64,000 bases of DNA from an uncultured Acidobacteriaceae bacterium (GTDB lineage Bacteria; Acidobacteriota; Terriglobia; Terriglobales; Acidobacteriaceae), in NCBI GenBank assembly GCA_963787915.1, contig CAWBEP010000017.1, positions 34,439-98,438 on the forward strand, read 5' to 3'. The first letter of the stretch is position 1; each line of letters opens with the position of its first letter. The notes under the pieces are model-generated. The model was not told the origin of the DNA. It saw nothing but the letters and a program-made list of their open reading frames with translations, and searched no databases. A program made the translations under genes and the position numbers. Positions 3,233 to 58,759 of this stretch are shown piece by piece.

Positions 3233-3313
3233 TTTTGTCAATGGACTTGGCATTTTCAGCGCCGGGTGGTTCGACCTCCGGATCCCATCCCGACCTTTCG
3301 ATCGTCGTGGGCT

Positions 3314-6461: not shown

Positions 6462-7253
6462 ATGAAGAGCGAAGGAAACAGGAAGATAACACGGGCGGAG
6501 CGCGAAGCAAACCTTTTACACTGGAATCAAATGCTCGCCACTTTTGCCAGCGCCGGCGCCGCCGCAATTTTTGCCGCTGGTGGATGCGCCTATGCTGGCT
6601 TGTCTTCCCAGTCGCAGCTGTTCGGACGAACGATCGTGGCTGGCCGCAATCCCCGGGAGATTGCGCTTACCTACGACGACGGTCCCAATGATCCGTGGAC
6701 TTCGCACCTGCTCGACCTGCTGGCGCTTCACGATCTCCACGCTACGTTCTTCCTCATCGGCCGTTTTGTGCGTCAGCGTCCGGAGCTCGTCCGGGAGATT
6801 CGCGATGCAGGTCACCTCATCGGCAATCACACGATGACGCATCCGTGGCTGACGGCGCAGAGTCTGCGGCGCGTCCGCGAAGAATTGGCTGGCTGCAACG
6901 CAGCTCTCGAAGATGTCCTGGGTGAGCGAGTGCGCTTCTTTCGTCCACCTCATGGTGCGCGGCGCCCCGATGTGCTGCTCGCGGCTCGCGAGTTGGGACT
7001 GAATCCAGTGATGTGGAATGCGATTGGTTACGATTGGCGAGCGAATATCTCCGCCGCTGCGATTGCCAGCCACGTTGAGCGGGATTTCGCCCGCAACCGC
7101 CGCCGTCGCCGCGGATCCAACCTCGTCCTTCACGATGGCAGTCACACGGCACTTGGTGCAGACCGTTCGCAGACCGTAGAAGCAACGCGACAAATTCTCG
7201 ACCGGCACCCACCCGCATCGACACAGTACCGAACCGTCGACGCCTGGACCTGA
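6462..7253 (+). CDS. polysaccharide deacetylase (NodB homology domain), membrane anchored
   Basis: Motifs LTYDDGPND, HATFFLIG and GNHTMTHP, with an N-terminal hydrophobic anchor. An alternative start is the ATG at 6531. Confidence 0.85.
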   Translation: MKSEGNRKITRAEREANLLHWNQMLATFASAGAAAIFAAGGCAYAGLSSQSQLFGRTIVAGRNPREIALTYDDGPNDPWTSHLLDLLALHDLHATFFLIGRFVRQRPELVREIRDAGHLIGNHTMTHPWLTAQSLRRVREELAGCNAALEDVLGERVRFFRPPHGARRPDVLLAARELGLNPVMWNAIGYDWRANISAAAIASHVERDFARNRRRRRGSNLVLHDGSHTALGADRSQTVEATRQILDRHPPASTQYRTVDAWT

Positions 7254-34390: not shown

Positions 34391-36010
34391 ATGGGACGTT
34401 GGATCAAGATTGGAATCACGGTGCTGGTCGTGTTGATCGTTCTGGTGCTTGCGGTGCCGTTGTTCGTCAACGCCGACTCTTTCCGTCCGACGCTGGAGAA
34501 CCAGTTGTCGAGCGCTCTGGGACGCAAGGTGACCCTGGGGCGGCTAAGTCTGTCGCTGTGGTCGGGGAGTGTTGACGCCGACACGCTGTCGGTCGCGGAT
34601 GATCCGGCGTTCAGCGCGACGCCGTTCCTGCAGGCGCAATCGCTGAAAATCGGTGTGGACGTTGGAGCGCTCCTGTTTCATCACGAGGTGAACGTCAGGA
34701 AGTTGGTTGTGGAGTCGCCGGAAATCCATCTGATCTCGAACCAGAAAGGCCTATGGAACTACTCGACCCTCGGGCATGGCGCAGCGACCGCCAGCCAGCA
34801 ACAGCCGGCGGGTCCTGCCCCCAATTTGACGGTGGGGGTGATGGAAGTCGACAGCGGAAAGCTTGTGGTGTCGTCGATACCCGCGACCGCCCAGCCGTTC
34901 GTCTATGACGCCGTCAACATTAAGGTGCAAAACGTATCGTTCAACCAGGCAATGCCGTTCACGATGACCGCAAATTTGCCCGCTGGAGGCTCGATGGCCC
35001 TGAACGGCACAGCGGGCCCGCTGAACCAGCAGGACGCGGAGGCGACGCCGCTGAACGCAAACCTGTCGGTGAAGGGGTTTGATCCGGTGAAGGCCGGCGT
35101 GGTACCCGCCAGCGCGGGCATTGGGATGGAGGCCGACATCGAAGCGCAGGTGACGTCCGATGGGAAGACGGCGACGAGCACAGGGAAGGTTGTAGCTCGC
35201 CATCTCGTGATGGCAAGAGGCGGGACGCCGACGCCCAACCCGGTGAACCTGACCTATACGGTGGCCGACGCGTTACAAACGCAGACCGGCGAAGTGAAGG
35301 ATCTGGCGCTCGTGACAGGCGCGGTCGCGGTGCATGCAACCGGGACGTTTGCGATGACCGGACCGACGGTGAAGCTGGACCTGCATGTGAATGCGCACCA
35401 GTTACCAATCGATGCAGTCGAGGAGTTGCTGCCCGCGGCAGGAGTGCGGCTGCCGACCGGATCGCAGCTGAAGGGCGGGACGCTGACAGCGCAGATGGCA
35501 ATTACCGGGACCCCGGCCGACCTGGTCATAGCGGGGCCGGTCGACGTCGACAACACGCAGCTGGCGGGGTTCGATCTGGCGTCGAAGATTCAGGGGCTGA
35601 AGGCATTAACGGGGACTGGCGGAGGGACCGGGATCCAGAAGGTGCATGCCGACGTGCGCCAGACGTCAGCAGGAACCCAACTGACGGACATCGAGGCCGT
35701 GGTGCCGGCCATCGGGAGTGCGACGGGACAGGGAACGGTGAGCTCGGATGGCGCGCTGAACTTCCAATTGTCGGCGAAGCTGAGCGGATCGGGGGCGTCG
35801 GGGGCGTCGACGAACGCCGCCACAGCGGCGCTGAGCGGGATTGCCGGCGGGGCATTGCATACTGTGGGCAACGTCGCCGTCCCTGTCACGATTACCGGAA
35901 CGACGGCAAACCCGGTGATTCGGGCGGATGTGGGGGCGATGGTGAAAAATACCGCAGGCGGAGCCAAAAAGGCCGCCACCGGGGTTTTCAAGGGGCTGTT
36001 CAAGCACTGA
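34391..36010 (+). CDS. AsmA-family outer-membrane biogenesis protein
   Basis: MGRWIKIGITVLVVLIVLVLAVPLFVN anchor followed by an AsmA-like repetitive beta-rich region. Confidence 0.75.
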   Translation: MGRWIKIGITVLVVLIVLVLAVPLFVNADSFRPTLENQLSSALGRKVTLGRLSLSLWSGSVDADTLSVADDPAFSATPFLQAQSLKIGVDVGALLFHHEVNVRKLVVESPEIHLISNQKGLWNYSTLGHGAATASQQQPAGPAPNLTVGVMEVDSGKLVVSSIPATAQPFVYDAVNIKVQNVSFNQAMPFTMTANLPAGGSMALNGTAGPLNQQDAEATPLNANLSVKGFDPVKAGVVPASAGIGMEADIEAQVTSDGKTATSTGKVVARHLVMARGGTPTPNPVNLTYTVADALQTQTGEVKDLALVTGAVAVHATGTFAMTGPTVKLDLHVNAHQLPIDAVEELLPAAGVRLPTGSQLKGGTLTAQMAITGTPADLVIAGPVDVDNTQLAGFDLASKIQGLKALTGTGGGTGIQKVHADVRQTSAGTQLTDIEAVVPAIGSATGQGTVSSDGALNFQLSAKLSGSGASGASTNAATAALSGIAGGALHTVGNVAVPVTITGTTANPVIRADVGAMVKNTAGGAKKAATGVFKGLFKH

Positions 36011-36144
36011 GGGATATCTTCCTGTGAGCCGAGCGTTGCTCCTGCCGTCCAGAGCAGGAGGTGGTTCTGGTTCCTGCGATGGCGATGCCATACTAGTCGT
36101 GTCCGGAGTTCTTTCCGCTTCGCGAGCATCCGCGTTGCGATGTG

Positions 36145-37626
36145 TCAGGTTCTGCTGGGCTCCGCAATGGGAATTCTGACTTCGGCGATGCAGCCCCTGT
36201 GATCGGGCTTGTTGCGCAGCTCAATCGCGCCGCCGTGGGCTTCGACGATCTGCCGGGCAAGGGCCAGGCCTACTCCAGATCCGGCTTTCTTGGTTGTGTA
36301 GAGCGGAACAAAGAGGTTCTCTGGGTTGGCCAGCCCTGGGCCGTTGTCTTCGATCAGAATCGAGACCAATTCCCCATCTTCGGCTGCGTGAATCGTGACC
36401 TCGGGAGTACCGCGATCTCTGGATGAGTCGTGACCCCCTTCCTCATCGGCGCAGGCGCTTGCCGATTCCACCGCATTGCGTATGAGGTTGATCAGCAGCT
36501 GCTCGATCTGGTCCTGGTCCGCGAGCAGTTCGACCTCGGGGGCGGCGAGGATGCGGACGTCAAGGCGAATCTCCAGCGAGACAACACGCTCCAGCAAAGG
36601 CAGAAGAGGCACGCGCTTGAGGACAGGGGCAGGGAGTTGCGCCAGTTCGCGATACGCCTGGACGAATCTGTTGAGCGATTCGGCCCGGTTTTCAATGACG
36701 CTGAGCCCGCGCTGAAGGTCGCGATTGAGCACGCCGTTCGAAGGTGCCTGCGTGGCTGCCTCGAGCGCTGGAATCGGGGATCGGGAGAGCACCGGGGCGA
36801 TCCGCGAGCGCAGGCTGCCGGCGATGGATTTGATGGGAGTCAGGGAGTTCGAGATTTCGTGCCCGATGACGCGAATGAGACGACGCCAGGCGAGACGTTC
36901 CTCTTCGCGCAGGGCCGCACTGACATCGGAGAGCACGACCAGGATATGCGGTACACCTCGCTGTCGGAATGTGGAACGGCGAATCATCCAGCGCTGCGGC
37001 TGGCTGGGCTCGGACCGACGCGTTCCGGGCCCGCGCGGCAGTTCCAGCTGGACGGCAGCTTCGCTGGGCTCATCAAAAAGTACGGTGAGATCGAGGTCCG
37101 CGACGGATTTACCGAGGTCGCGAGCAGGTAAGAGAGAGAAGACACGCTCGGCGGCCGGGTTCAGCAGACGCAGCCGGTTCTCCTGATCGAAAGCGAGAAC
37201 GGGGGCATCCATTTCGGCAATGACGCGACGGAGAAGAGCGACCGCTTCGAGGGACCCTACGCGCTGGGCCTGCAGAGTGTCGGCGAGGGCGTTGATTTCG
37301 AGGCTTAGCTGACCAACGGAGTCTTCGCGATTCGCGCCACGCGCGCGGAAGGAGTAGTCCTCCTCACGCAAGGCGGCAACGACGTTGGCGAGGGTCTGGA
37401 TTGGACGAACGGCCTCTTCAATGAATGCGGCGAAAACAAGCAGCAGGATGAGAAGGAGCATGCCAAGGGTGGCAAGCATCGGGCCCATCGTCACGTGGAA
37501 GAGCGCGAGAACAGCGGCGCAGAGTCCAAGAACAGTCAGAGCGCCAACGGTGCAAAAGACGCGGAGGCGCGCTTCAAAAGAGATGCTCTGGCGTTTGGGC
37601 TTGCGTCGGTGCGGGTAGTTCGCCAT
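36145..37626 (-). CDS. sensor histidine kinase (TM hairpin-HAMP-PAS-HisKA-HATPase; NtrY/AtoS-like)
   Basis: H-box IGHEISNSLTPIKS, plus N, G1 and G2 boxes. Two TM segments are separated by about 6 residues. Confidence 0.85.
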   Translation of the reverse strand: MANYPHRRKPKRQSISFEARLRVFCTVGALTVLGLCAAVLALFHVTMGPMLATLGMLLLILLLVFAAFIEEAVRPIQTLANVVAALREEDYSFRARGANREDSVGQLSLEINALADTLQAQRVGSLEAVALLRRVIAEMDAPVLAFDQENRLRLLNPAAERVFSLLPARDLGKSVADLDLTVLFDEPSEAAVQLELPRGPGTRRSEPSQPQRWMIRRSTFRQRGVPHILVVLSDVSAALREEERLAWRRLIRVIGHEISNSLTPIKSIAGSLRSRIAPVLSRSPIPALEAATQAPSNGVLNRDLQRGLSVIENRAESLNRFVQAYRELAQLPAPVLKRVPLLPLLERVVSLEIRLDVRILAAPEVELLADQDQIEQLLINLIRNAVESASACADEEGGHDSSRDRGTPEVTIHAAEDGELVSILIEDNGPGLANPENLFVPLYTTKKAGSGVGLALARQIVEAHGGAIELRNKPDHRGCIAEVRIPIAEPSRT

Positions 37627-37679
37627 CGGGTCAGAGCGCCAGGCTCAGAGCTCAGGGTTCAGTGCGCTCAGGATGACAG

Positions 37680-39080
37680 CTAGATGCCATACTTTTCCAT
37701 CCGCCGGTAGAGAGCACCGCGGCTGAGTCCGAGGGCCTCTGCCACCTGGCTCACGTTGCCGTTGCAGCGCGCGAGTGCTTTGCGGATGAGGATACTCTCC
37801 ACCGACTCGAGGGACATCTCTTCGAGGGCCTGGGTAGAGACACGAGCCGGCGAGAGGCCAAGGTCGGGGACTTCGATGACGTCTTCGCGCGCCATCAGGA
37901 CGGCGCGCTCGATGGTGTGGTCGAGCTCACGCACGTTGCCCGGCCACGCATAGTGGAGCATGAGCTCCATCGCAGTGGGGTCGATGCCCTGGACCTGCTT
38001 GCGATAGCGTTGTGCGTAGCGTGAGAGGAAATGAGCGGCAAGGGGCGGGATGTCTTCCCGCCGCTCGCGCAGCGGTGGCAGGTGAATTTCGACGGTGTTG
38101 AGCCGGAAGAGGAGGTCGGCGCGGAAGCGCTGCGATTCAACCTCGGCACGGATGTCGGCATTCGTGGCGGAGATGATGCGGACGTTGACGTGGCGCGTCT
38201 TGGAGGAACCGACGCGTTCCATTTCGCCGGTCTCAAGCACGCGCAGTAACTTGGACTGCTGTCGCATGGGGACGTTGGCGATCTCGTCGAGAAACAGCGT
38301 TCCGCCTTCGGCGAGTTCGAAGCGGCCAATGCGTTCCGTTCGCGCGTCGGTGAATGCGCCCTTGACGTGGCCGAAGAGCTCGCTTTCGAATGTACCCTCG
38401 GGAAGCGCGCCGGTGTTCACGGCAACCATGGAGCGTGAGGCGCGCGATGAGAGGGCGTGCAGCGTCTGCGCCACGACTTCTTTGCCAGTCCCGTGCTCGC
38501 CGGTGATCAGTACGCTGGCGTCGGAGGGGCCGATGCGCGCGATAGTAGCGAGGACCGGCTGCATAGCGGGCGCGGTCGCAATCATCTCGGGAAGATTCGC
38601 GGTGCGGAGGAGGCGATTCTCGGCCTCAAGCCGCTGGGCGCGGCGAACGGCTTTCGAGAGATCGATCTGGGTGCGCAGGATCGTCAGCAGGCGGGCATTG
38701 TCCCATGGCTTCTGGATGAAGTCATTGGCGCCGCGGCGCATGGCTTCGACAGCGAGCTCGACGTTGGCCCACGCGGTCATGATGATGACCGGAAGGTGAG
38801 ATTCGTGGGAGCGAATCTGGGAGAGAAGATCGAGGCCTTCGCGGCCCGAGGTCGTGTCGCGGGTGTAATTCAGGTCGAGGAGCAGGGCGTCAAAGGTGCT
38901 GGATTTGAGCGTGTCGAGGACCATATATGGCGACGTGGCCTTTTCGATGCGGTAGCCCTCAGGCTCAAGGAGAAGTTCGAGGGCGTCGAGGATGTGCGGC
39001 TGATCATCGGCGATCAGGACGCAAGGCGCGAGGCGTTGGCGCGCGGTTTCGGTTTCGGTTTGGGCGATGGTGCTCGACAT
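37680..39080 (-). CDS. sigma54-dependent response regulator (REC-AAA+-Fis HTH, NtrC family)
   Basis: REC domain, Walker A GEHGTGKE, GAFTDA loop, and a C-terminal HTH NVSQVAEALGLSRGALYRRM. Confidence 0.9.
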   Translation of the reverse strand: MSSTIAQTETETARQRLAPCVLIADDQPHILDALELLLEPEGYRIEKATSPYMVLDTLKSSTFDALLLDLNYTRDTTSGREGLDLLSQIRSHESHLPVIIMTAWANVELAVEAMRRGANDFIQKPWDNARLLTILRTQIDLSKAVRRAQRLEAENRLLRTANLPEMIATAPAMQPVLATIARIGPSDASVLITGEHGTGKEVVAQTLHALSSRASRSMVAVNTGALPEGTFESELFGHVKGAFTDARTERIGRFELAEGGTLFLDEIANVPMRQQSKLLRVLETGEMERVGSSKTRHVNVRIISATNADIRAEVESQRFRADLLFRLNTVEIHLPPLRERREDIPPLAAHFLSRYAQRYRKQVQGIDPTAMELMLHYAWPGNVRELDHTIERAVLMAREDVIEVPDLGLSPARVSTQALEEMSLESVESILIRKALARCNGNVSQVAEALGLSRGALYRRMEKYGI

Positions 39081-39122
39081 GGGTCTCAGCTGTCCGCTCG
39101 TTGCTCCTAGCCAGTCCTCCTA

Positions 39123-41138
39123 TTATGGGCCGTGTGTGACAACGCCCGATTTCGCGTCATCGATGGAGACATTCATGCGGTCGAGCGTAGCCCCAGTGGC
39201 CCGATCGATATCCACCTTTGCCTTTTCAAAGTTCGTTTGAGCGAGAACCAGCGCAGACTCAGATACGGCGAGGGCATTTTCCGCGGCTAAAGTGTCAACG
39301 CTGGATTTGGCGCCGAGCTGCTGTTCCTGCTTCGTGATATCGAAGGTGCGCTGAGCGAGGTCACGGGCTTTCTGGGCAGCGTCTACGCGCGCCTGCGCCT
39401 GTTCAAGAGCGAACTGCGAGTTGCGCACGTCGAATGTGATTCCTTTCTTCTGCTGCTCATAAGTGATCTGGCTCTGGCGGAAGGCCAAAACCGCGCGAAA
39501 CTGATCTGCCTTTGCCTGGCGATTACGCAGGTTGATGGCCAGCGTTACGCCGACCTGGTATTCGGGAGAAGAGTAATTGAAGGTGTTCTGCAGCATGCTG
39601 GGGAAGTTGGTGGGCAGAGTGGTGCTGCACTCCGCGGCCCCCAGATCGCAGTAAGGATTGAGGGGGCCCGCGGTGCCGTTACCGGCGTACACGCCGTACA
39701 TATTGAGGGTGGGCAACAGCTCGCTGTTGATGTCCTTCAGGCTTTGCCTCTGCACTTCGGCCTGCATCTGGTAGATGGAGACCTCAGGGCGGTTCTTCTC
39801 CGCCTGAGCGATGAGCTCGTCGATGGATTTCGCCGCATTCGGATCGGGCGGCCCGAGGAGGTCGAGCGGAACAACGGGCATGGTGTCGATCGCCGGATCG
39901 TCGGTCTTGGTGAGCGCATTTTTCATCAGCAACTCGTTGAGGCGCAGGCTGGCGCGGGACACGGTGAGGTCGCCTTCGCTGGTGGCAACGTCCGACTGAT
40001 CCTTCATTACCTGCATAGCCGGGATAGCATTCAGCTCGAGCTGCTTCTGGTCGTCGGAAAGTGTCTGGTTTGCGAAGCCGAGGGCGCGCTCCTTGATCTG
40101 CTCGTCCTGATAGGCATTGACGAGGTCCCAGTAGATGTTTTCGACTTGCGTGACGGTAGCGATGACCTGCGCTTTGAAAGCGAGATCGGTGATCTGCAGG
40201 TTCCGCTTCGCGATGTGCATGAAGCGCTCATTGGTGGAAAGCCCGAAGCCAGCCAGCAATGGCTGGGTAATGAGAACTGTGAAATTGGAATAGAGGCTTG
40301 GATTGATGGCGTTGTACGGACTGTTGCTCGTAAAACGCTCGCCTGTGTAACTGACATTGACGTTGGTTCCCAGCGGAAAAGACTGCGAGTAATTGGACTG
40401 GCCTTCGATCGTATTCACTCGGAGTGTCGGGGTGCCGACAAGGAAGACGTTTTCTTCCTGGGTCACGCTGTGGTCGACGAATCCTCTGAAGGTCAGGGTG
40501 GGATCGAAAGAGGGAACCGACGTCCCTGCGCCGAGCGTCGATGTGACGATCCCCCCGGCGCCGGCGGCCGACAGGCCGGAACTTGTGGATCCGCCGCCTC
40601 CACCGGTGGAGGCAGCAAAGCCACCCTGCGTTCCCTGCACGATGTTAGTGTTAACGCCATTGGCGGCGCCACCGGCTCGTGTGCGCAGGATGTCGGTCTG
40701 TGCGATGGGGAAGTTATAGCGGAAGTAGGCGAGGTCGAGGTTGTTCTCGAGCGCGAGGGCGATGGCGTCACGGAGAGAGATATAGAGCTTGCCTTCGCGA
40801 ATGAGATTTTCGAGGCGCGGGGAGTTCAGGAGATTGACGTCCGGCGCGTTGCTGGCCCGATAGCGATCGAGCGGGTTACGCGAGTGCGGCATCGTTACAT
40901 GGAATGGTCGCTGCGGCGCGACCGTCTGCTGCTGCAGTTGCTGAGCCTGCTCCGCGATCGTGGGCGGGGGTGCGGGAGTGGGTGCGGTTACAGGCGCGGG
41001 CGCTTCCGGAGTTGTTGGAGTCGCAGTCTGCGTCACTGGAGGGTTTTGCGGCGCCTGGGTTTGCGCGAAGCCGGGGGACAGGAGAAGTCCGCACATAATG
41101 GCAGCCAGGATCCGTTGATGCCAGGAGGCGCCCGTCAC
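39123..41138 (-). CDS. TolC-family outer-membrane efflux protein
   Basis: Signal peptide, a Pro/Thr/Gln-rich linker, then duplicated OEP repeats. The GTG start overlaps the upstream stop (GTGA). Confidence 0.85.
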   Translation of the reverse strand: MTGASWHQRILAAIMCGLLLSPGFAQTQAPQNPPVTQTATPTTPEAPAPVTAPTPAPPPTIAEQAQQLQQQTVAPQRPFHVTMPHSRNPLDRYRASNAPDVNLLNSPRLENLIREGKLYISLRDAIALALENNLDLAYFRYNFPIAQTDILRTRAGGAANGVNTNIVQGTQGGFAASTGGGGGSTSSGLSAAGAGGIVTSTLGAGTSVPSFDPTLTFRGFVDHSVTQEENVFLVGTPTLRVNTIEGQSNYSQSFPLGTNVNVSYTGERFTSNSPYNAINPSLYSNFTVLITQPLLAGFGLSTNERFMHIAKRNLQITDLAFKAQVIATVTQVENIYWDLVNAYQDEQIKERALGFANQTLSDDQKQLELNAIPAMQVMKDQSDVATSEGDLTVSRASLRLNELLMKNALTKTDDPAIDTMPVVPLDLLGPPDPNAAKSIDELIAQAEKNRPEVSIYQMQAEVQRQSLKDINSELLPTLNMYGVYAGNGTAGPLNPYCDLGAAECSTTLPTNFPSMLQNTFNYSSPEYQVGVTLAINLRNRQAKADQFRAVLAFRQSQITYEQQKKGITFDVRNSQFALEQAQARVDAAQKARDLAQRTFDITKQEQQLGAKSSVDTLAAENALAVSESALVLAQTNFEKAKVDIDRATGATLDRMNVSIDDAKSGVVTHGP

Positions 41139-41839
41139 GATGCGGTCACCTCCACGCCGAGGTTAGGATTGGCGGAGTCCGCCGTCAGCCATCCATCGCG
41201 CAGCTCGATGACCCGGGAGCCATAACCGGCATTGACTTCCGAATGGGTGACCTGAACGATTGTTGTGCCCTGTTGGTTCAGTTCGCGGAACAACTCCATG
41301 ATCTCCTTCGCCTGGCTGGAATGCAGGTTGCCGGTAGGCTCATCGGCAAGCAGCAGTGCCGGTTTGTGGATCACAGCCCGGGCAACGCCAACGAGCTGCT
41401 GTTGTCCGCCGGAGAGCTGCGAGGGGAAGAGGTCTTTCTTGCCGACAATACTGAATCGGTCCAGAGTGTCCGCGACCAGGCCCTGGCGTTGAGCCCTGGG
41501 CATGTCCTTGTAAGACAGGGGCAAGTCGATGTTTTCCTGGACGGTGAGATCGTCAAGCAGGTGATAGCTCTGGAAGACCATTCCGATATTGCGCTTGGCC
41601 AGTTCGGCGCGCTGACGCCGATTCATCCGATGTGCGGCCTCCTCCTTAAACCAGTACTCGCCGAGCCACTGGTCATCGAGCAGAGCGAGGACATTCAGGA
41701 GCGAGGACTTTCCCGCCCCCGAGGGGCCCATGATGGTGAGGAATTCGCCCTCCTGGATTTCGAGGTTCACGCGGCGCAGAACCCAGGTCTGGCCGGCGCC
41801 GGTCTTATAACTGCGTTCGATATTTTTTAGCTGGATCAT
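41135..41839 (-). CDS. ABC transporter ATP-binding protein, MacB/LolD type (ATPase 2)
   Basis: GPSGAGKSS, LSGGQQQ, LLLADEPTGNL and VTHS. Confidence 0.9.
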   Translation of the reverse strand: MIQLKNIERSYKTGAGQTWVLRRVNLEIQEGEFLTIMGPSGAGKSSLLNVLALLDDQWLGEYWFKEEAAHRMNRRQRAELAKRNIGMVFQSYHLLDDLTVQENIDLPLSYKDMPRAQRQGLVADTLDRFSIVGKKDLFPSQLSGGQQQLVGVARAVIHKPALLLADEPTGNLHSSQAKEIMELFRELNQQGTTIVQVTHSEVNAGYGSRVIELRDGWLTADSANPNLGVEVTAS

Positions 41840-41926
41840 GAGCTTAGCCTGTAGGCGTTGGTCTTTCTGTAGCGGGCTTCAAGCAAGCACACGGATGCGC
41901 TTGCCTGGCCACCGGCTACCAGCTCG

Positions 41927-42646
41927 TTACTTGACTTCGAGAACCTGTTCCAGCGCCTCACCCTCAGCGACCACCTTGCCGTCGAAGAGATGGATTTGGC
42001 GATCAGCATGGCGGGCGAAGCGCGGATCGTGGGTGACCATGCAGATGGTCGCGCCCTCGCGATGCAGGTTCTGGAGCAGCTCCATGACCGCTTCGGCGTT
42101 GCGCGAATCGAGGTTTCCAGTAGGCTCGTCAGCCAGCAGGATGGACGGCGAACCAGCGAGCGCGCGAGCCACGGCAACACGTTGCTGCTGACCGCCGGAA
42201 AGCTGCGATGGATAGTGGCGGATGCGGTGCGCCATGCTGACCCGCTCCAGAGACTCCTGGACACGACGCTTGCGTTCGCTCGCCGACATCCCGGAGCGAT
42301 ACGTGAGCGGCAGCTCGACATTCTCGTAGACGGTGAGGTCGCCGATCAGGTTAAAGCTCTGAAAGATGAAGCCGATTTCCTGGTTGCGAATGCGGGAGCG
42401 TTGCGAAAAGTTGAGGTTCTCAACCGAGTGGCTGTTGAGCGTGTAGCTGCCACCGGTGGGTGTGTCGAGCAGTCCGATGATCGAGAGCAGCGTTGATTTG
42501 CCACATCCGGAGGGCCCGGAAATGGCGACGTATTCGCCTTTGTCAATCTTCATGTGGACGCCGGACAGCGCGTGGGTTTCAATCTCATCGGTGTAGAAGA
42601 CCTTGGTAAGGCCTTCGATTTCAATCAACGCCTGATTGTTGTCCAT
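41927..42646 (-). CDS. ABC transporter ATP-binding protein, MacB/LolD type (ATPase 1)
   Basis: GPSGCGKST, LSGGQQQRVAVARAL, ILLADEPTGNLD and VTHD. Confidence 0.9.
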   Translation of the reverse strand: MDNNQALIEIEGLTKVFYTDEIETHALSGVHMKIDKGEYVAISGPSGCGKSTLLSIIGLLDTPTGGSYTLNSHSVENLNFSQRSRIRNQEIGFIFQSFNLIGDLTVYENVELPLTYRSGMSASERKRRVQESLERVSMAHRIRHYPSQLSGGQQQRVAVARALAGSPSILLADEPTGNLDSRNAEAVMELLQNLHREGATICMVTHDPRFARHADRQIHLFDGKVVAEGEALEQVLEVK

Positions 42647-42688
42647 CCTGCTCTCTCCTGCGTTTCGGATATCTGCTGGTCCTGCGTC

Positions 42689-43984
42689 TTAATCCAAACG
42701 AACCTTATCGGTCGCATCGTAGCGCGACATGTCAGAAAGGATCACACGATCCCCCTCGTTCAGGCCGCTGAGAACCTGGATCTGCGTGACCGAAGCTCTG
42801 CCAACCTTGACCTGGACCCGCGTGGCGGTTTTGCCGTTGGGGTCCTCTCTGAACAAACTGACGGTGCTGTTCTCATTGCAGAATGCACAGCGGCCCACGT
42901 AAAGCACGTCGTGGAGACGCTCGAGATCGATGGTGCCGTCGACGCTGAGCTGAGGAACCGCCCCGGCCGGCAACGGGCCATCGAGTGTTACGTCAACGGT
43001 ACGCGTTCCGTTCAATACCGAGGGATCGATTCTGGAGACATGGCCGGGAACGATGCCGTTGTGCGTGTCAATCTCGGCCTGCTGGCCAATCAGGATGTCG
43101 TGCGCCTGGGTTTCGGCAATCTGCAATGCCGCCTTTAGCTGGTTGGGATTGATGACCTCGGCGACGGAAGTTCCCGCCGTGACATGCTGCCCGACCTGGA
43201 CCGGAGTAGGCAGGGAACTGAGGACCCCTGCAATTCCTGCACGGACCTGGAGGGCGGCCTCCTGCTTCTCGTACAGATCCAGAAGGGCCTTGGCCTGATC
43301 GATCTTGGTTTGCTGTGAAGCCAGCTGCACTTCGATGGCTCGAGTATTGACGTCGATCTGCTGCTGGCTGATCTGGTGCTGCGTGGTCAGCTGGTCGGCC
43401 TTGCTCTTCGACTGGTTGTATTGCAGGCCGCTGATCACGCCCAGTGAATAGAGTTGCTTGTCGGTCTGCGCCTGCAGCTGATCCTGCGTGTAATCGGAGT
43501 TGACGGCTGCGGCGGCTTCCTTCTTATCCATGAGTGTGCTCTGCAGCTGGGCCTGGAGGTTCTTGTAGTCGGCCTGCGCCCCCTTGAGCGCTAATTGCGC
43601 GTTGAGCACCTCTTGCTGCAACTGAGGGTCAGTCATGTCCAGCAGGATGGTGTCAGGCTTGACCATCGTGCCGGGGAGCACACGGATGCGGATAACCGTT
43701 GCGTCGGTTTGCGCGGGGATGAGCTCGATACTCTCTTCGCGGGGAACCAGGGTGCCGAGACCGCGGACCTGACGGATCATGTCGCCGCGCTTGACAGTCT
43801 CAGGCCACACCGTGCTGGCATCGACGGTTGGAACGGCGGGTTTCAGACGCATCACGGCCCAGGCGGCAGCAGTCACGCCGAGGGCAACAACGGCCAGGAC
43901 GATGATCTGCCGGCGGAGCTTCTTCTTCCGAATATCGGGGCGAGCTATGTCCATTGGAAAATGTAGTTGCATGCGCCACACCAA
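42689..43984 (-). CDS. periplasmic adaptor (HlyD/MacA membrane-fusion family)
   Basis: N-terminal TM anchor, a long coiled-coil region (QLQ.. repeats) and beta-barrel/lipoyl segments. Confidence 0.85.
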   Translation of the reverse strand: MVWRMQLHFPMDIARPDIRKKKLRRQIIVLAVVALGVTAAAWAVMRLKPAVPTVDASTVWPETVKRGDMIRQVRGLGTLVPREESIELIPAQTDATVIRIRVLPGTMVKPDTILLDMTDPQLQQEVLNAQLALKGAQADYKNLQAQLQSTLMDKKEAAAAVNSDYTQDQLQAQTDKQLYSLGVISGLQYNQSKSKADQLTTQHQISQQQIDVNTRAIEVQLASQQTKIDQAKALLDLYEKQEAALQVRAGIAGVLSSLPTPVQVGQHVTAGTSVAEVINPNQLKAALQIAETQAHDILIGQQAEIDTHNGIVPGHVSRIDPSVLNGTRTVDVTLDGPLPAGAVPQLSVDGTIDLERLHDVLYVGRCAFCNENSTVSLFREDPNGKTATRVQVKVGRASVTQIQVLSGLNEGDRVILSDMSRYDATDKVRLD

Positions 43985-44069
43985 TCGTCCAGTGCGGCTA
44001 AGCTCCTGAATTAAATACTATTACAGGGGGTAATCCTTTCAGTTTGTTAAGTGCTGAGTGGCCGTTTGC

Positions 44070-44084
44070 GCAAAGCACTGTCCA
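44070..44084 (-). promoter_or_regulatory. candidate sigma54 -24/-12 promoter upstream of the adaptor gene
   Basis: The minus strand reads TGGACAGTGCTTTGC. GG and GC have the canonical spacing of TGGCAC-N5-TTGC. The element lies 86-100 nt upstream of the ATG at 43984. Confidence 0.3.
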
Positions 44085-44774
44085 TTAGCGGACATCCGTC
44101 GCTGAAGCTACCGGGAGCAGCCCTGCAGACCGCAATTTCCCCCCGACGACCGTCACAATTTGGCGGTGGATCGTCTCGATGGCCCGATCTCCGTCGATGA
44201 CCACCACACGCGCCGGCTCGCGGGCAGCGATCTCCCCGTATTTGTCGTAAACGCGCCGGTAGAACTCCACATCTTCCCGCTCAAAGCGTCCCTCATCGTT
44301 GCCAGCGGCCGCGTTGCGGTCGTTGCGTCGGCGCGCACGGTGCAGCGACTGGTCGAAGTTGGCTAGAAGTAAAAGGGTCATGTCGGGGTTGAGGCCACCA
44401 CACATCGTCCGGTGCAATGCGAGGACCGGTTCACTGCCCAGCTGGCGCCCACCACCCTGGTAGGCCTCCGTGGAGTCGGTGAAACGATCGCAGAGAACGA
44501 CATTGCCACCGTGAAGCGCAGGGGCGATCACCTCGGCGATGCATTCGGCGCGGTCGGCGAACATCAGTCCCAGCTCGGCCATGGGATCGAGGCGCTCGGT
44601 TTTCGAATCCAGCAGGAGCCCGCGAATACGATCCCCGATGCCGGTTCCTCCCGGCTGGCGTGTGACGGTGATACTGAGCCCGAGACCTTCAAGATGAGTG
44701 GCCAGTTTGCGCAACTGGGTCGTCTTACCCGAGCCATCGAGGCCCTCGAAGGTGAGGAAGAAGCCGGAGGACAT
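44085..44774 (-). CDS. tmk: thymidylate kinase
   Basis: The ATG at 44772-44774 gives MSSGFFLTFEGLDGSGKTTQ. The listed ORF extends further upstream, spuriously. Confidence 0.85.
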   Translation of the reverse strand: MSSGFFLTFEGLDGSGKTTQLRKLATHLEGLGLSITVTRQPGGTGIGDRIRGLLLDSKTERLDPMAELGLMFADRAECIAEVIAPALHGGNVVLCDRFTDSTEAYQGGGRQLGSEPVLALHRTMCGGLNPDMTLLLLANFDQSLHRARRRNDRNAAAGNDEGRFEREDVEFYRRVYDKYGEIAAREPARVVVIDGDRAIETIHRQIVTVVGGKLRSAGLLPVASATDVR

Positions 44775-54139: not shown

Positions 54140-54344
54140 CGAGTCCTCCACTTCTATTTGCGCATAAGAAGCGGCCGAATGGGAGCCGGATGCCTTTCCT
54201 TACTAATAACTATCCCAGGGCGTCCGAACTTTCGTGTTATGGTCAGCGGCGGCTGAGGGGATTTTGAAAATCGCGTACAGCGGCGTATCAGAGCTGTACC
54301 CCCTCCACGCCGTTCCGGCGCGCCATTCACGGTATAATTACAGC

Positions 54345-55370
54345 GTGAGTTCAACCGTTACCGAGACCCCAGTCGCTCCCCGGCACACGGCGTCCAGCTC
54401 GAGCGAAAGACGCGTCCTGCTGTTGAAACCCCGCGGTTTTTGCGCAGGCGTGGTTCGGGCAATTGACATTGTGCGCATCGCCCTCGAAACCTTTGGAGCG
54501 CCGATTTATGTGCGCAAGGAGATCGTCCATAACCGCTTTGTTGTGAATGAACTGGCGGAAAAGGGCGCGATCTTTGTGGACGATATTCACCAGGTTCCCG
54601 AAGGCGCACGCGTCATCTACTCGGCGCATGGCGTTTCGCCAGCGGTCCGCGAGCAGTCGAAAGAGCGCAAGCTCAAGGTGATTGACGCGACCTGCCCACT
54701 GGTGACCAAGGTTCACGTCGAAGCAGTGAAGTTCGCTCAACAGGGCTATTCGCTTGTATTGATCGGCCACCGCGATCACGACGAGATTGAAGGCACCCTG
54801 GGTGAGGCTCCCAATGTCACTCAGGTTGTATCGAGTGTCGAGGAAGTGCGAACGCTGGAAGTGCCGGACCCGGAACATGTGGCTTACCTGACCCAGACAA
54901 CGCTGTCTCTCGACGAATCCCGCGACATCATTCAGGCCCTGAAGCAGAAATTCCCGAAGATGGTCGGGCCCCATTCCCAGGACATTTGCTACGCAACGGA
55001 GAATCGCCAGGTCGCGGTGAAGAACGTCGCACACAGCGCCGATCTGGTGCTGGTTGTGGGTTCGAACAACAGCTCGAATTCGAATCGGTTAGTCGAAGTT
55101 TCGCGCAATCTTGGGACCCAGGGCTATCTGATCGACAATGCCGACGCAATCCATCCGGAATGGTTAGAGGGCGTCAGTAACGTGGCGGTTACGGCTGGTG
55201 CTTCGGCGCCGGAGATCCTGGTCGAGGGTGTTATCGAGTATCTGAAGCGCAACGGCTTCGGAACGGTCGAGGAAGTCGAAGTGATGCCGGAAAACGTCCG
55301 GTTCGGGCTTCCGCCGGAGATCGTTCAGGCGATTCAGTCGGCTCCTCCGCCAACCCCCGCGGGAGTCTGA
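54345..55370 (+). CDS. ispH: 4-hydroxy-3-methylbut-2-enyl diphosphate reductase
   Basis: KPRGFCAGVVRAIDIV, SAHGVSP, DATCPLVTKVH and GSNNSSNSNRL. The start is uncertain: GTG at 54345 or GTG at 54234. Confidence 0.85.
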   Translation: MSSTVTETPVAPRHTASSSSERRVLLLKPRGFCAGVVRAIDIVRIALETFGAPIYVRKEIVHNRFVVNELAEKGAIFVDDIHQVPEGARVIYSAHGVSPAVREQSKERKLKVIDATCPLVTKVHVEAVKFAQQGYSLVLIGHRDHDEIEGTLGEAPNVTQVVSSVEEVRTLEVPDPEHVAYLTQTTLSLDESRDIIQALKQKFPKMVGPHSQDICYATENRQVAVKNVAHSADLVLVVGSNNSSNSNRLVEVSRNLGTQGYLIDNADAIHPEWLEGVSNVAVTAGASAPEILVEGVIEYLKRNGFGTVEEVEVMPENVRFGLPPEIVQAIQSAPPPTPAGV

Positions 55371-55481
55371 GAATACGCGCAACCGGGGTGGGTGCGGGCA
55401 TCCAAACATCATGGGCCCATTCAATGCATCTTCATTGGCGGAGCGCCATCAGTATTAGAGGAAACGTGGTTCCTTGAACGC

Positions 55482-57560
55482 ATGAGTACACCTTCTGAAG
55501 TCGTTCGGCCCCGCGCAGCAGCATCTCCCTCAGGGAGTAGTGGCAGTGGTATCCCTGTCACCGAGCCACGCCGGCCTTTTGCCAATGTGAAATTTGGGCG
55601 CATCGACGCCGCACCTGAAGAGGTGGCGCGCGCCATCGAGCGGTCCCGCGAATCGCTGCTGGCGCGGCAGCATCCTGAGGGCTACTGGAGCGGCGAGCTC
55701 GAAGGCGATTCGATGCTGGAGGCAGATTACATTTTCCTCCACGTCCTGCTGGGTACGGGCGATGCGGGAAAGATGGAAAGAGCCCTTACTGAGATCATGC
55801 GCTACCGGAACGACGATGGCAGCTGGTCGCTCTATCCGGGTGGTCCCGGCAATGTGAGCCTTTCGGTCAAGTGCTATTTCGCGAACAAGCTGATGGGTGT
55901 TTCTGCAGATGAGCCGCACATGGCTCAGACCCGGGAGTGGATTCTCGCCCATGGTGGTGTGACCGCTTGCAACACCTTCACGAAGATTTATCTTTGCTCG
56001 CTGGGGCAATACGAATACAACTGCGTTCCCGCCATCCCGCCGGAGATCGTCCTGTTCCCCAGTTGGTTCTGGTTCAACATTTACGAAATCTCATCGTGGT
56101 CGCGGGCGATTCTGGTGCCGCTGTCGATCGCATATGCAAAAAAGCCCTTTAAGAAGATTCCCTCCGAGCACGGCATCCAGGAGCTTTTCGTGGGTGGCCG
56201 CGAGAATGCCGACCTGAAGTTGCGCTGGGATCGCGAGCACCTTTTCGGGTGGCGCAATTTCTTCATTTTCATCGACCGGCTGACCCACTGGTGCGAGCGC
56301 ATCCACATCCGCCCGCTGCGCTCGGTCGCCCTGAAGAAGGCGCAGAAGTGGATGCTGGAGCGTCTCGAGATGTCCGACGGGCTGGGGGCGATCTATCCGG
56401 CCATCCTCAACTCGATTATCGCGCTCCGTTGTCTCGGTTATTCGCTCGACGATCCGCAGGTGATCCGCGCGATGGACGAGTTCGAAAAGCTCGGCATCGA
56501 CGAACCGCACGGAACGAAGGATTATCCCGAACCCACCTTTCGCATGCAGCCGTGCCTGTCTCCGGTATGGGATACGGCTCAGGCCGTCTATGCGCTCGGA
56601 GAGGCGGGGCTGGATCGCAAAGACCCGCGGCTGCTGAAGGCCGCTGACTGGATGCTTTCCAAGGAAGTCCGTCACAAAGGCGACTGGGCGGTGAAGAACC
56701 GGCGCGCCGCCCCAGGGGGTTGGTACTTTGAGTTCAACAATGAGTTTTACCCGGATGTTGATGATACGGGACAGGTTCTGCTCGCTCTGAATAAAGTCGA
56801 TAATCCCCGCGAACGTTATCAGTACGACGTTTGCCAGCGAGCCATCGACTGGGTTTTCTCCATGCAGTGCCGCAATGGCGGCTGGGCCAGCTTCGACAAA
56901 GACAACACGAAGATGATCTTCCAGCACATCCCATTTGCGGATCACAATGCGATGCTCGACCCGCCGACAGTGGACATCACCGGGCGCATCCTCGAGATGC
57001 TCGCCACCTATGGCTACACCCGCAAGGATCGCCGCGTAGAGAAGGCCATCAAGTTCATCTACCAGGAACAGGAGCCGGACGGCAGCTGGTTTGGCCGGTG
57101 GGGCGTGAATTACCTGTACGGCACCTTCCTGGTGCTGCGCGGTCTCGAGGCGATCGGTGTGTGGAACCACGAGCCGCAGGTGCAGCAGGCGGCGGAGTGG
57201 GTCCGTTCCGTGCAGAACGCGGACGGCGGCTGGGGGGAAAGCTGTAACAGCTACGACGATCCAGTGGCGCGGGGGATCGGCACCAGCACGCCTTCGCAGA
57301 CAGCCTGGGGCGTCCTGGGACTTCTGGCGGCGGGCGATACACGAAGCGACTCCGTGGCCAAGGGCGTCAAATGGCTGCTGGCCCAGCAACAAGCCGATGG
57401 TTATTGGGATGAAAGCCAGGGTGCGGGCAAGACGCGCCAGGCGATCTATACCGGGACCGGTTTCCCACGTGTGTTCTATCTGGCCTATCCGCTCTACCGC
57501 GACTATTTTCCGTTGCTGGCGCTGACCAGCTACAAGCGGGCGCTGGAAAAGGCCGAGTAA
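55482..57560 (+). CDS. shc: squalene-hopene cyclase
   Basis: Multiple QW repeats (e.g. QNADGGWGE, RNDDGSWS) and the DVDDTG catalytic motif. Start is the ATG at 55482. Confidence 0.9.
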   Translation: MSTPSEVVRPRAAASPSGSSGSGIPVTEPRRPFANVKFGRIDAAPEEVARAIERSRESLLARQHPEGYWSGELEGDSMLEADYIFLHVLLGTGDAGKMERALTEIMRYRNDDGSWSLYPGGPGNVSLSVKCYFANKLMGVSADEPHMAQTREWILAHGGVTACNTFTKIYLCSLGQYEYNCVPAIPPEIVLFPSWFWFNIYEISSWSRAILVPLSIAYAKKPFKKIPSEHGIQELFVGGRENADLKLRWDREHLFGWRNFFIFIDRLTHWCERIHIRPLRSVALKKAQKWMLERLEMSDGLGAIYPAILNSIIALRCLGYSLDDPQVIRAMDEFEKLGIDEPHGTKDYPEPTFRMQPCLSPVWDTAQAVYALGEAGLDRKDPRLLKAADWMLSKEVRHKGDWAVKNRRAAPGGWYFEFNNEFYPDVDDTGQVLLALNKVDNPRERYQYDVCQRAIDWVFSMQCRNGGWASFDKDNTKMIFQHIPFADHNAMLDPPTVDITGRILEMLATYGYTRKDRRVEKAIKFIYQEQEPDGSWFGRWGVNYLYGTFLVLRGLEAIGVWNHEPQVQQAAEWVRSVQNADGGWGESCNSYDDPVARGIGTSTPSQTAWGVLGLLAAGDTRSDSVAKGVKWLLAQQQADGYWDESQGAGKTRQAIYTGTGFPRVFYLAYPLYRDYFPLLALTSYKRALEKAE

Positions 57561-57622
57561 GCGCCGGGACGCGGCGGGTCAACTGAACTGAGTCCGGATT
57601 TCAGACGGAGGAAGGATTACTG

Positions 57623-58759
57623 ATGGCGGTACCTGTTTCCCAGGCATGGACGGTGGCCACCTACGTCCTGACGCAAAAGCTGAAAGGCAGGAAGCGCTTT
57701 CCGCTCGTGACGATGCTCGAGCCGCTCTTCCGCTGCAACCTGGCCTGTGCCGGGTGCGGCAAGATTCAATATCCGCCTCACATCCTCAAGCAGGAGCTGA
57801 CGCCGGAGGAGTGCTTCCGCGCGGTCGAAGAGGCCGGCACGCCGATGGTTTCCATTCCCGGTGGAGAACCGCTGCTGCATCCGCAGATCGACAAGATTGT
57901 CGCGGGCCTGGTTGAGCGCAAAAAGTACGTTTACATGTGCACGAACGCGCTGCTTCTGAAAGAAAAACTTTACCTGTTCAAGCCGAGCAAGTATCTCTCG
58001 TTCTCCGTCCACCTCGACGGCCAGCGCGAGCACCACGATTTCTCCGTATGCCGCGAGGGTGGCTACGACATCGCGATGGAAGGAATCAAAGCGGCGATCG
58101 CGGCAGGTTTCCGAGTGACGACGAATACGACGCTCTTCGACGGCGCCGATCCAAATTCGGTGCGCGCTCATTTCGACGAGTTGATGGACGTTGGGGTCGA
58201 GGCCATGATGGTCGCTCCCGGCTACACCTACGAGAAGGCTCCCGACCAGAAGCACTTCCTGGGCCGCGCCCGCTCGCGCAAGCTCTTCCGCGCGATTCTT
58301 TCGAATCGCAGGAAGACCTGGAAGTTCAACGCGAACTACCTATACCTCGAATTCATCATGGGCAAGCGGGATTTCAAATGCACGCCGTGGGCGATGCCGA
58401 CATACAGCATCTTCGGCTGGCAAAAACCCTGCTACCTCCTGCAGGATGGGTACGCGGATACCTTCGAGGAGCTGATCGAGTCCACGAACTGGGACAACTA
58501 CGGCACCGAGAGCGGCAATCCGAAGTGCGCGAACTGCATGGTCCACTCCGGCTACGAAGGCACCGCGGTGAACTACACCTTCGGATCGCTGAAGGGACTG
58601 TGGGAGACGGCGAAGGCGATGACAAGGCTCTATCCCGACAAGGGCGCGCTCGATCTTCTCAACGAGCCAGTAAAACCAGCGCACAGCTTCAATCCGCTGG
58701 TACAGATCAACGCCCAGGTCAGGACTGAGGTCCGCGTTGAAGAGGGAAGTCGCGCATGA
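57623..58759 (+). CDS. hpnH: adenosyl-hopene transferase (radical SAM)
   Basis: LEPLFRCNLACAGCGKIQYP is the HpnH-type CxxxCxxC context. A conserved C-terminal region contains CANCMVHSGYE. Confidence 0.9.
   Translation: MAVPVSQAWTVATYVLTQKLKGRKRFPLVTMLEPLFRCNLACAGCGKIQYPPHILKQELTPEECFRAVEEAGTPMVSIPGGEPLLHPQIDKIVAGLVERKKYVYMCTNALLLKEKLYLFKPSKYLSFSVHLDGQREHHDFSVCREGGYDIAMEGIKAAIAAGFRVTTNTTLFDGADPNSVRAHFDELMDVGVEAMMVAPGYTYEKAPDQKHFLGRARSRKLFRAILSNRRKTWKFNANYLYLEFIMGKRDFKCTPWAMPTYSIFGWQKPCYLLQDGYADTFEELIESTNWDNYGTESGNPKCANCMVHSGYEGTAVNYTFGSLKGLWETAKAMTRLYPDKGALDLLNEPVKPAHSFNPLVQINAQVRTEVRVEEGSRA

Follow-up and report, generated by a model that had tools for sequence, protein, structure and literature searches.

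The window analysed here, i.e., the whole stretch of 64,000 nucleotides from an uncultured Acidobacteriaceae bacterium (contig CAWBEP010000017.1, positions 34,439 to 98,438), contains on its minus strand an operon of six genes encoding a HlyD/MacA-type adaptor, two different ATP-binding cassette (ABC) ATPases, a TolC-like outer-membrane factor, an NtrC-type activator and a sensor histidine kinase. We consider it likely that this operon specifies a sigma54-controlled, MacAB-TolC-like (type VII ABC) envelope-spanning efflux module, the permease gene of which has moved out of the operon, with a partner from the ADOP permease family (TIGR03434) being encoded elsewhere. Synteny lends good support to a partnership between the operon and ADOPs, as do regulatory elements that the two have in common in some genomes, and we infer a heterodimer of the two ATPases and an assembly of the system in trans as plausible further properties. 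Within the window, the stand-alone ADOP at 7331-9874 is the best candidate for a trans-encoded membrane partner as judged from sequence comparison.

Gene Organization of the Operon

The genes concerned are the following:

42689-43984 in the list of open reading frames (ORFs; 431 aa), likely 42689-43954, minus strand: HlyD/MacA-type periplasmic adaptor (Pfam)
41927-42646, minus strand: ATPase 1, MacB/LolD-type (type VII ABC), 239 aa (Pfam ABC_tran)
41840-41926, minus strand: spacer of 87 nt between ATPase 1 and ATPase 2, the site of one to at least four ADOP genes in 54 related genomes
41135-41839, minus strand: ATPase 2, a paralog of ATPase 1, 234 aa (Pfam ABC_tran)
39123-41138, minus strand: TolC-like outer-membrane factor, 671 aa (Pfam OEP)
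37680-39080, minus strand: NtrC-type sigma54-dependent response regulator, 466 aa (Response_reg, Sigma54_activat and HTH_8)
36145-37626, minus strand: sensor histidine kinase, 493 aa (HAMP, PAS and HATPase_c)
7331-9874, plus strand: stand-alone ADOP permease (TIGR03434, Pfam)

In agreement with a preceding sequence-only reading of this DNA, the six co-directional genes of the operon are tightly packed with gaps of 42, 87, -4 (GTGA overlap), 42 and 53 nt, and each of the domain assignments on which their identification was based was confirmed by Pfam and NCBIfam. Neither a sigma70-like promoter nor a minus-strand terminator was found in the 8.4 kb from 35900 to 44300, which is consistent with one common transcript. 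Recurrence in 25 other genomes and purifying selection on each of the six genes show that the arrangement did not come about by chance. The absence of an FtsX-type permease in or beside the operon, likewise noted from the letters of the sequence, was verified by hidden Markov model (HMM) scans, in which Pfam was applied to the larger ORFs of the window and two FtsX HMMs to every ORF of at least 50 aa: the ADOP at 7331-9874 is the sole FtsX protein in the 64 kb. Furthermore, tblastn with ATPase 1 and ATPase 2 as queries detected no additional ABC ATPases in the window. The hallmark of MacAB-TolC-type systems, a permease with MacB periplasmic domain and FtsX helices that is fused to or located next to the ATPase, is therefore missing from the operon in the window, whereas 54 related genomes have it in their version of the operon.

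Synteny in Related Genomes

One genome per species was scanned with ATPase 2, and at least 562 loci were found to code for a related protein. The best 80 of these loci (L002-L081), at least 80% identical by ATPase 2, stem nearly all from metagenome-assembled genomes (MAGs) of Terriglobia/Acidobacteriaceae and include Silvibacterium bohemicum. As established by tblastn synteny, the orthologous operon is conserved across the 80 loci, and in 54 of them ADOP genes, recognized by their matches to the window ADOP, are located between the genes for the two ATPases. The order of genes then reads HlyD, ATPase 1, ADOP (one to at least four copies), ATPase 2, TolC, NtrC and kinase. The loci are distributed as follows:

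One embedded ADOP: 8 loci
Two embedded ADOPs: 4 loci
Three embedded ADOPs: 5 loci
Embedded ADOPs with a count limited by the 10-kb flank: 37 loci (33 of them with about four or more)
No permease, ATPase 1 adjoining ATPase 2: 25 loci and the window
Assigned to neither class: 1 locus

All seven embedded permeases that were tested against TIGR03434 exceeded the cut-off of 622 bits with scores of 823-989, and ORF maps of L020 and L054 revealed tight packing of the embedded ADOPs with gaps of 3-36 nt. Among the permease-less loci, 14 were checked and no FtsX domain was detected within 10 kb of the operon. The earlier statement that ADOPs essentially never have an ATPase gene as a neighbour is incorrect as far as this operon family is concerned, given that ADOPs are flanked by two ATPases in 54 of the 80 loci, and is also at variance with a previously described gene cluster (PMC3914696). 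The designation as orphan does not apply to the 120 ADOP family members embedded in the related operons.

In four cases (L032, L039, L060 and L077) the operon resides on contigs labelled as Eisenbacteria, Steroidobacteraceae, Verrucomicrobiia and Gammaproteobacteria. Their ATPase 2 sequences are 82-84% identical to that of the window, and mis-binning or mislabelling of the MAG contigs is the probable explanation.

The Two ATPases

Both ATPases contain the intact motifs ascribed to them at the outset, i.e., Walker A (GPSGCGKST and GPSGAGKSS), the LSGGQQQ signature, LLADEPT as Walker B and the H-loop, and with a mutual identity of 42% they clearly represent different paralogs, just as had been proposed. 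The best NCBIfam matches of both proteins are of the DarD, LolD, MacB and FtsE type, which assigns them to the MacB/LolD/FtsE clade, and their closest relatives in the PDB are type VII ABC ATPases (5XU1, MacB, LolD, FtsE, BceA and YbbA). Identity to the respective orthologs amounts to 80-99% for ATPase 1 and to 80-98% for ATPase 2 across 80 species.

When 41 orthologs of ATPase 1 and 80 orthologs of ATPase 2 were compared, each group together with the window copy, 86 columns turned out to be shared and 65 to carry fixed differences. Walker A, Q-loop, LSGGQQQ, the Asp-Glu of Walker B and the H-loop are retained in both groups. The motifs of ATPase 1 are fully canonical including the D-loop GNLD and the extended signature LSGGQQQR, whereas two fixed changes characterize ATPase 2, namely GNLD to GNLH in the D-loop and replacement of the arginine following the signature by leucine (LSGGQQQL). 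Both genes are present wherever the available flank is long enough, including all eight operons with a single ADOP (in L049, 57% of ATPase 1 is covered). The two distinct paralogs are hence co-encoded as well as co-conserved, as expected of a heterodimeric pair, and the retention of both in single-ADOP operons together with the 65 fixed differences, among them that in the D-loop of ATPase 2, favours an arrangement with one copy of each ATPase per fused permease. The two halves of ADOPs consistently differ in their cytoplasmic loops (E.avR.ALGA in the N-terminal and RTrEIGiRMALGA in the C-terminal half). As a test for the involvement of two ATPases this asymmetry was discarded because systems with ATPase homodimers are similarly asymmetric.

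Adaptor, Outer-Membrane Factor and Two-Component System

The adaptor is identified as such by the Pfam families HlyD_3 (48.4 bits, cut-off 22.2) and HlyD_D23 (43.4 bits, cut-off 30), with the score for TIGR01730 (92.7) lying just below the cut-off of 94.9. It possesses one N-terminal transmembrane helix and an N-terminus, MDI(A/S)RP, that is conserved among orthologs. Since the TTG at 43984 falls within the promoter described below, the ATG at 43954 is the likely start of HlyD.

The TolC-like protein belongs to the TolC family according to Pfam OEP (114.9 bits in two stretches, cut-off 22) and stays below the cut-off for the narrower TIGR01844 (70 vs. 225). The start of its gene overlaps the stop codon of ATPase 2 by 4 nt (GTGA), and the overlap is identical in L020. 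At 671 aa the protein is unusually long for an outer-membrane factor; a signal peptide is followed by a stretch rich in Pro, Thr, Ala and Gln (residues ~28-75), and a Gly/Ser-rich insert is found at residues ~165-215. In L074 (10001-12139) the operon occurs without a gene for the TolC-like protein and that for the regulator directly follows ATPase 2.

The regulator combines a receiver, an AAA+ domain and a Fis-type helix-turn-helix (Pfam Response_reg, Sigma54_activat with 216 bits, AAA_lid_14 and HTH_8). Its sigma54-contact loop reads GAFTDA (canonically GAFTGA) in the window as well as in 66 of 67 orthologs. The kinase is predicted to span the membrane with two helices connected by an outside loop of at most 10 aa and is devoid of a periplasmic sensor domain; HAMP, PAS, the H-box and the ATPase domain follow.

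Predicted Enhancer and Sigma54-Type Promoter

Three regulatory elements are predicted upstream of the operon:

44079-44094, strand not given: upstream activating sequence 1 (UAS1), an inverted repeat TGTCC-N6-GGACA and the sole match in the window at up to one mismatch
44059-44074, strand not given: UAS2, a degenerate copy TTTGC-N6-GGCCA, read by eye from aligned upstream regions
43968-43983, minus strand: sigma54-type -24/-12 element TGGTGTGGCGCATGCA (TGG-N9-TGCA), from aligned upstream regions

UAS1, the centre of which is 20 nt apart from that of UAS2, is the presumed binding site of the operon's own NtrC-type activator. In the orthologous loci, a second element resembling TTCCG-N5/6-GGnCA follows UAS1 at the same distance, as read by eye and with no statistical score attached. 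In related loci totalling 1.41 Mb there are 30 copies of the exact repeat TGTCC-N6-GGACA, 28 of them within ~260 nt upstream of HlyD and two upstream of a stand-alone ADOP. The -24/-12 element is situated ~105 nt downstream of UAS1 and ends 14 nt before the HlyD ATG. Nearly all orthologous loci feature TGG-N9-TGC(A) at 14-15 nt before the start codon with variable inner nine bases, as expected of a sigma54 -24/-12 promoter, such that the predicted elements would constitute a promoter of this kind with an upstream enhancer, both at conserved positions. It was the comparison of upstream regions that rendered the sigma54 element visible; a plain consensus search with TGGCAC-N5-TTGC and up to two mismatches yielded matches at chance level and missed the real element.

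In the window, UAS1 overlaps the stop codon (44085-44087) of tmk, the gene for thymidylate kinase, and the same is observed in L002, L006 and L007; in this sub-clade the regulatory site is thus partly located within a housekeeping gene. The distance of 14-15 nt between sigma54 element and start codon was encountered in the window (43952-43983), in L002-L080 and upstream of the stand-alone ADOPs of L070 (~1925-1960) and L077 that are described below. No Shine-Dalgarno sequence is visible between the predicted element and the start codon, and the short distance predicts sigma54 transcripts that are leaderless or nearly so.

Stand-Alone ADOPs and Their Relation to the Operon

The ADOP in the window matches TIGR03434 from end to end (881 bits, cut-off 622) and is composed of two MacB_PCD and two FtsX stretches (Pfam) with eight predicted transmembrane helices. 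It qualifies as an orphan in that no ABC ATPase is encoded nearby in the window. Orthologs share 76-92% identity with it, and no MacB-type ATPase is located beside those in L082 and L083; the flank in L083 contains one ABC ATPase, which lies ~3 kb from the ADOP and beside its own importer permease. A gene for a polysaccharide deacetylase always precedes ADOPs of this type (observed at 6462-7253 and 7331-9874 in the window, at 9166-12541 in L082 and at 9145-12544 in L083), and the 77-nt gap between the two genes in the window harbors a hairpin. The adjacency may indicate a functional link of ADOPs of the window type to modification of the cell envelope or exopolysaccharide.

In two permease-less loci, L070 and L077, a stand-alone ADOP of the subfamily to which the window ADOP belongs is found ~5 kb upstream of the operon with its own copy of the enhancer, and its ATG is preceded at 15 nt by a sigma54 promoter, TGGCCTCTGAAATGCT. 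A sigma54-like element, TGGCTGG-N-TTGC, also accompanies an ADOP that is divergently oriented to HlyD in L072 and L080. The window ADOP, the sigma54-driven ADOP of L070 and the single ADOPs embedded in the operons of L020 and L047 form one subfamily with mutual identities of 45-51%, as opposed to at most 39% with all other ADOPs. The choice of the ADOP at 7331-9874 as an exemplary partner, made originally from the window alone, has thereby gained support, as its identity with the embedded ADOPs of L020 and L047 amounts to 49-50%. This divergence is comparable to that between window and L020 for TolC (52% identity) and kinase (51%), which renders orthology of the window ADOP with the embedded ADOPs plausible.

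An alignment of 153 ADOPs identified the cytoplasmic segments, i.e., the N-terminal helix, two loops of the type connecting transmembrane helices 2 and 3 and the C-terminal tail, as the most conserved parts of the protein (0.66-0.75 vs. ~0.45 for the periplasmic domains). Embedded and stand-alone ADOPs have a common consensus in these segments, as would be expected if both dock on the same ATPases. The window ADOP agrees with the embedded copies in its cytoplasmic motifs. Besides the sigma54-controlled ADOPs there appears to be a second regulatory class, as suggested by a gene for a PadR-family regulator (2371-2700) directly upstream of another stand-alone ADOP (2716-5379) in L070.

Evolution of the Permease-Less Operon

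In a concatenated neighbor-joining tree of ATPase 2, TolC and NtrC from 50 taxa, the window and all included permease-less loci fall into one clade, with the ADOP-containing operons as a sister clade, the deepest members of which have a single ADOP. Apart from one outlier, the permease-less form is confined to this one clade, comprising 25 genomes and the window. When trees were rooted with the paralogous ATPase, the permease-less group was nested inside a grade of ADOP-containing operons in the ATPase 1 subtree. On the basis of this rooting, for which ATPase 1 favours loss and ATPase 2 is ambiguous, it is more likely that the permease gene was lost or relocated than that it was gained.

Sequence comparison with permease-less relatives indicates that the operon is not decaying and that its six genes are under purifying selection. 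At synonymous divergences (dS) of ~1-1.5, the median ratios of nonsynonymous to synonymous divergence (dN/dS) are 0.048 for ATPase 1, 0.056 for ATPase 2, 0.10 for NtrC, 0.14 for HlyD, 0.15 for TolC and 0.18 for the kinase. In the permease-less loci, including the window, the spacers that separate the two ATPase genes were free of ADOP remnants, with two marginal matches being attributable to chance. These spacers measure 87-357 nt and exceed the gaps in ADOP-containing operons (window 41840-41926; L005, L061, L075 and L079); they contain short direct or inverted repeats, e.g., the GCTACAGGCT repeats in L005.

Proposed Mechanism and Alternatives

According to the model that we favour, the kinase, which is devoid of a periplasmic domain, would activate the NtrC-type regulator and probably senses its stimulus within the membrane or through the transporter. 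The regulator would bind to two adjacent sites of the TGTCC-N6-GGACA type ~105 bp upstream of the -24/-12 promoter and switch on all six genes of the operon, among them those for the two-component system itself. The two ATPases would jointly power an ADOP, a single chain of two non-identical MacB-like halves, most likely with one copy of each ATPase per permease, and the HlyD adaptor would join the permease to the TolC-like duct, such that substrates picked up from the periplasm or the outer leaflet could be expelled. In this genome the ADOP would be encoded outside of the operon, with that at 7331-9874 as the best candidate in the window. The parts of the model that we infer are the heterodimer, assembly in trans, the mode of sensing and the substrate.

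Several points weigh against this model. Known type VII permeases of the fused or heterodimeric kind, for instance LolCE, YbbP and BceB, run on ATPase homodimers, so that the asymmetric halves of ADOPs do not require two kinds of ATPase. In addition, both ATPases have complete catalytic motifs, whereas many heterodimeric ABC exporters carry one degenerate site. Neither an enhancer nor a sigma54 promoter was found upstream of the window ADOP and its orthologs, and co-regulation with the operon in this genome is therefore not supported. The view on this genome covers 64 kb, and a second ATPase pair or other FtsX permeases may exist elsewhere in it. Lastly, the ambiguity of the paralog-rooted ATPase 2 subtree leaves formal room for a gain of ADOPs in the sister clade. 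Of the original proposal that the operon supplies orphan ADOPs with their missing parts, the partnership with ADOPs is thus upheld, based on the synteny in 54 of 80 loci, on seven out of seven tested permeases belonging to TIGR03434 and on the regulatory elements in L070 and L077, while the ATPase heterodimer and assembly in trans are retained as plausible.

A more far-reaching version of the model can be put forward tentatively. Here, the entire expanded ADOP family of the Terriglobia would be driven by one conserved heterodimer of ATPase 1 and ATPase 2 together with adaptor and duct as a shared engine, with ADOPs acting as interchangeable, substrate-specific plug-in permeases that are encoded inside the operon, or adjoin it under the same sigma54 enhancer, or are scattered with regulators of their own, e.g., of the PadR family. 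If true, type VII ABC systems would gain their first example of a heterodimeric ATPase pair, and the apparent orphan state of ADOPs would be explained.

Every type VII system of known structure in which the permease is fused or heterodimeric, including those of the PDB relatives LolD, YbbA and BceA, operates with ATPase homodimers, and in line with this ATPase 1 and ATPase 2 might form separate homodimers, each serving another set of ADOPs or another transport step, with two motors sharing one adaptor and duct. The complete catalytic motifs of both proteins and the existence of arrays of up to four or more divergent ADOPs are consistent with such a division of labor. However, neither ATPase has been lost at any locus with sufficient flank, and both genes persist in eight out of eight operons with just one ADOP to be served (57% of ATPase 1 being covered in L049). 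Moreover, the fixed changes in ATPase 2, from Asp to His in the D-loop and from Arg to Leu after the signature, face the partner subunit and would be more easily tolerated in a heterodimer. We consequently regard separate homodimers as rather unlikely.

Still less probable is a scenario in which the permease-less clade makes use of a non-ADOP partner, be it a single-module permease of the FtsX/MacB type or another protein encoded elsewhere, and in which the link to ADOPs is merely historical. It would be compatible with the lack of enhancer co-regulation of the window ADOP, with the restriction of the accessible genome to 64 kb and with the finding that 14 permease-less loci contain no permease closer than 10 kb to the operon, but L070 and L077, which are permease-less themselves, retain a stand-alone ADOP with the same enhancer and promoter. 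The conserved cytoplasmic segments common to stand-alone and embedded ADOPs also speak against this scenario, as does the identity of 80-98% between the ATPases of both kinds of operon, implying that the docking surface has hardly changed. That the permease-less operon is a decaying remnant without current transport function after deletion of its permease gene is suggested by the absence of this defining gene but is extremely improbable, considering that the six genes are intact in 25 other genomes with dN/dS values of 0.05-0.18 at dS of ~1-1.5 and that enhancer and promoter are conserved.

ADOPs constitute a large and expanded family in soil Acidobacteriota and have been annotated as orphan ever since the family was defined. 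Their placement between a specific pair of ATPases, together with adaptor, duct and sigma54 regulator, makes the question of their partners experimentally addressable, e.g., which ATPase acts on which half, which compound serves as inducer and which substrate is exported. If the model applies, a type VII ABC permease driven by two different ATPases would represent a new arrangement for MacB-like pumps, and the same holds true for several exchangeable permeases operating on one motor, adaptor and duct. This could help to explain how these abundant soil bacteria handle many toxic or secreted compounds.

Other Features of the Window

Outside of the operon and the ADOP region, the window contains a hopanoid-related gene group (54234-58759) encoding IspH/LytB, squalene-hopene cyclase and a radical SAM protein with DUF3463.

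Comparison With Known Systems

Literature searches retrieved two mentions of the ADOP/TIGR03434 family, but no functional study of it and no paper on the operon described here. With MacAB-TolC from E. coli the putative system has in common the MacB/LolD-type ATPase fold, a MacA/HlyD-type adaptor with N-terminal transmembrane helix, a duct of the TolC family and, in the presumed permease, the MacB periplasmic and FtsX modules. MacB, however, is an ATPase fused to a four-helix permease and acts as a homodimer, whereas the ATPases studied here are separate proteins of two paralogous kinds and the permease would be a fused double module (ADOP) that is encoded outside of the operon and occurs in one to at least four copies in the operons of relatives. 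Regulation by a sigma54 two-component system constitutes a further difference.

Precedents for permeases powered by an ATPase encoded elsewhere are provided by MsiK, MsmX and MsmK, ATPases of Gram-positive sugar importers that are shared in trans by several ABC permeases. The importers concerned are of type I and rely on a single ATPase that forms a homodimer, in contrast to the envelope-spanning type VII system with two ATPases proposed here.

The E. coli systems LolCDE and YbbAP resemble the module in that their ATPase is a separate protein and in the make-up of the permease, a heterodimer in the case of LolC/LolE and a fused double module in that of YbbP (arrangements described in PMC5985334). 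Both ATPases of the operon have YbbA and LolD among their relatives in the PDB. They differ by the presence of just one ATPase gene, the product of which forms a homodimer, and by the lack of adaptor and TolC. YbbP moreover has two extra linking helices, whereas eight helices are predicted for ADOPs.

The BceAB-BceRS antimicrobial-peptide resistance modules of Firmicutes offer an analogy, and not more than that, in that genes for a type VII ABC transporter and for a kinase occur together and the kinase crosses the membrane twice and lacks a sensor domain on the outside; this topology suggests that sensing may proceed through the transporter. On the other hand, the regulator in the operon is an NtrC-type sigma54 activator instead of an OmpR-type protein, the kinase contains HAMP and PAS domains, and adaptor and duct are present. 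Permeases of the BceB type have ten helices and a single outside domain as opposed to eight helices and two periplasmic domains in ADOPs, and the resemblance to Bce-type modules is confined to the topology of the kinase.

The darobactin exporter DarBCD likewise consists of a large FtsX-type permease, an adaptor and an ATPase. DarD is the best NCBIfam match of both ATPases, at 255 and 237 bits, and the adaptor and, weakly, the ADOP match DarC and DarB (profile of 777 positions), respectively, but all of these scores are far below the equivalog cut-offs. DarBCD also differs in having one ATPase and in being part of a peptide biosynthesis cluster.

With regard to the ADOP family itself, the gene in the window and the tested embedded permeases score above the TIGR03434 cut-off and are regular members. 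While the name of the family implies the lack of an ATPase partner, a conserved pair of ATPases together with adaptor, duct and regulator flanks the ADOPs in the operons described here. A cluster of ADOP paralogs (ten according to the text and eight according to the figure legend) beside ATP-binding proteins was reported in 2014 for Psychroflexus torquis, a member of the Bacteroidota, without a mechanism being proposed (PMC3914696). Compared to that cluster and to the family as defined, the operon family characterized here stands out by the additional existence of a variant stripped of its ADOPs.

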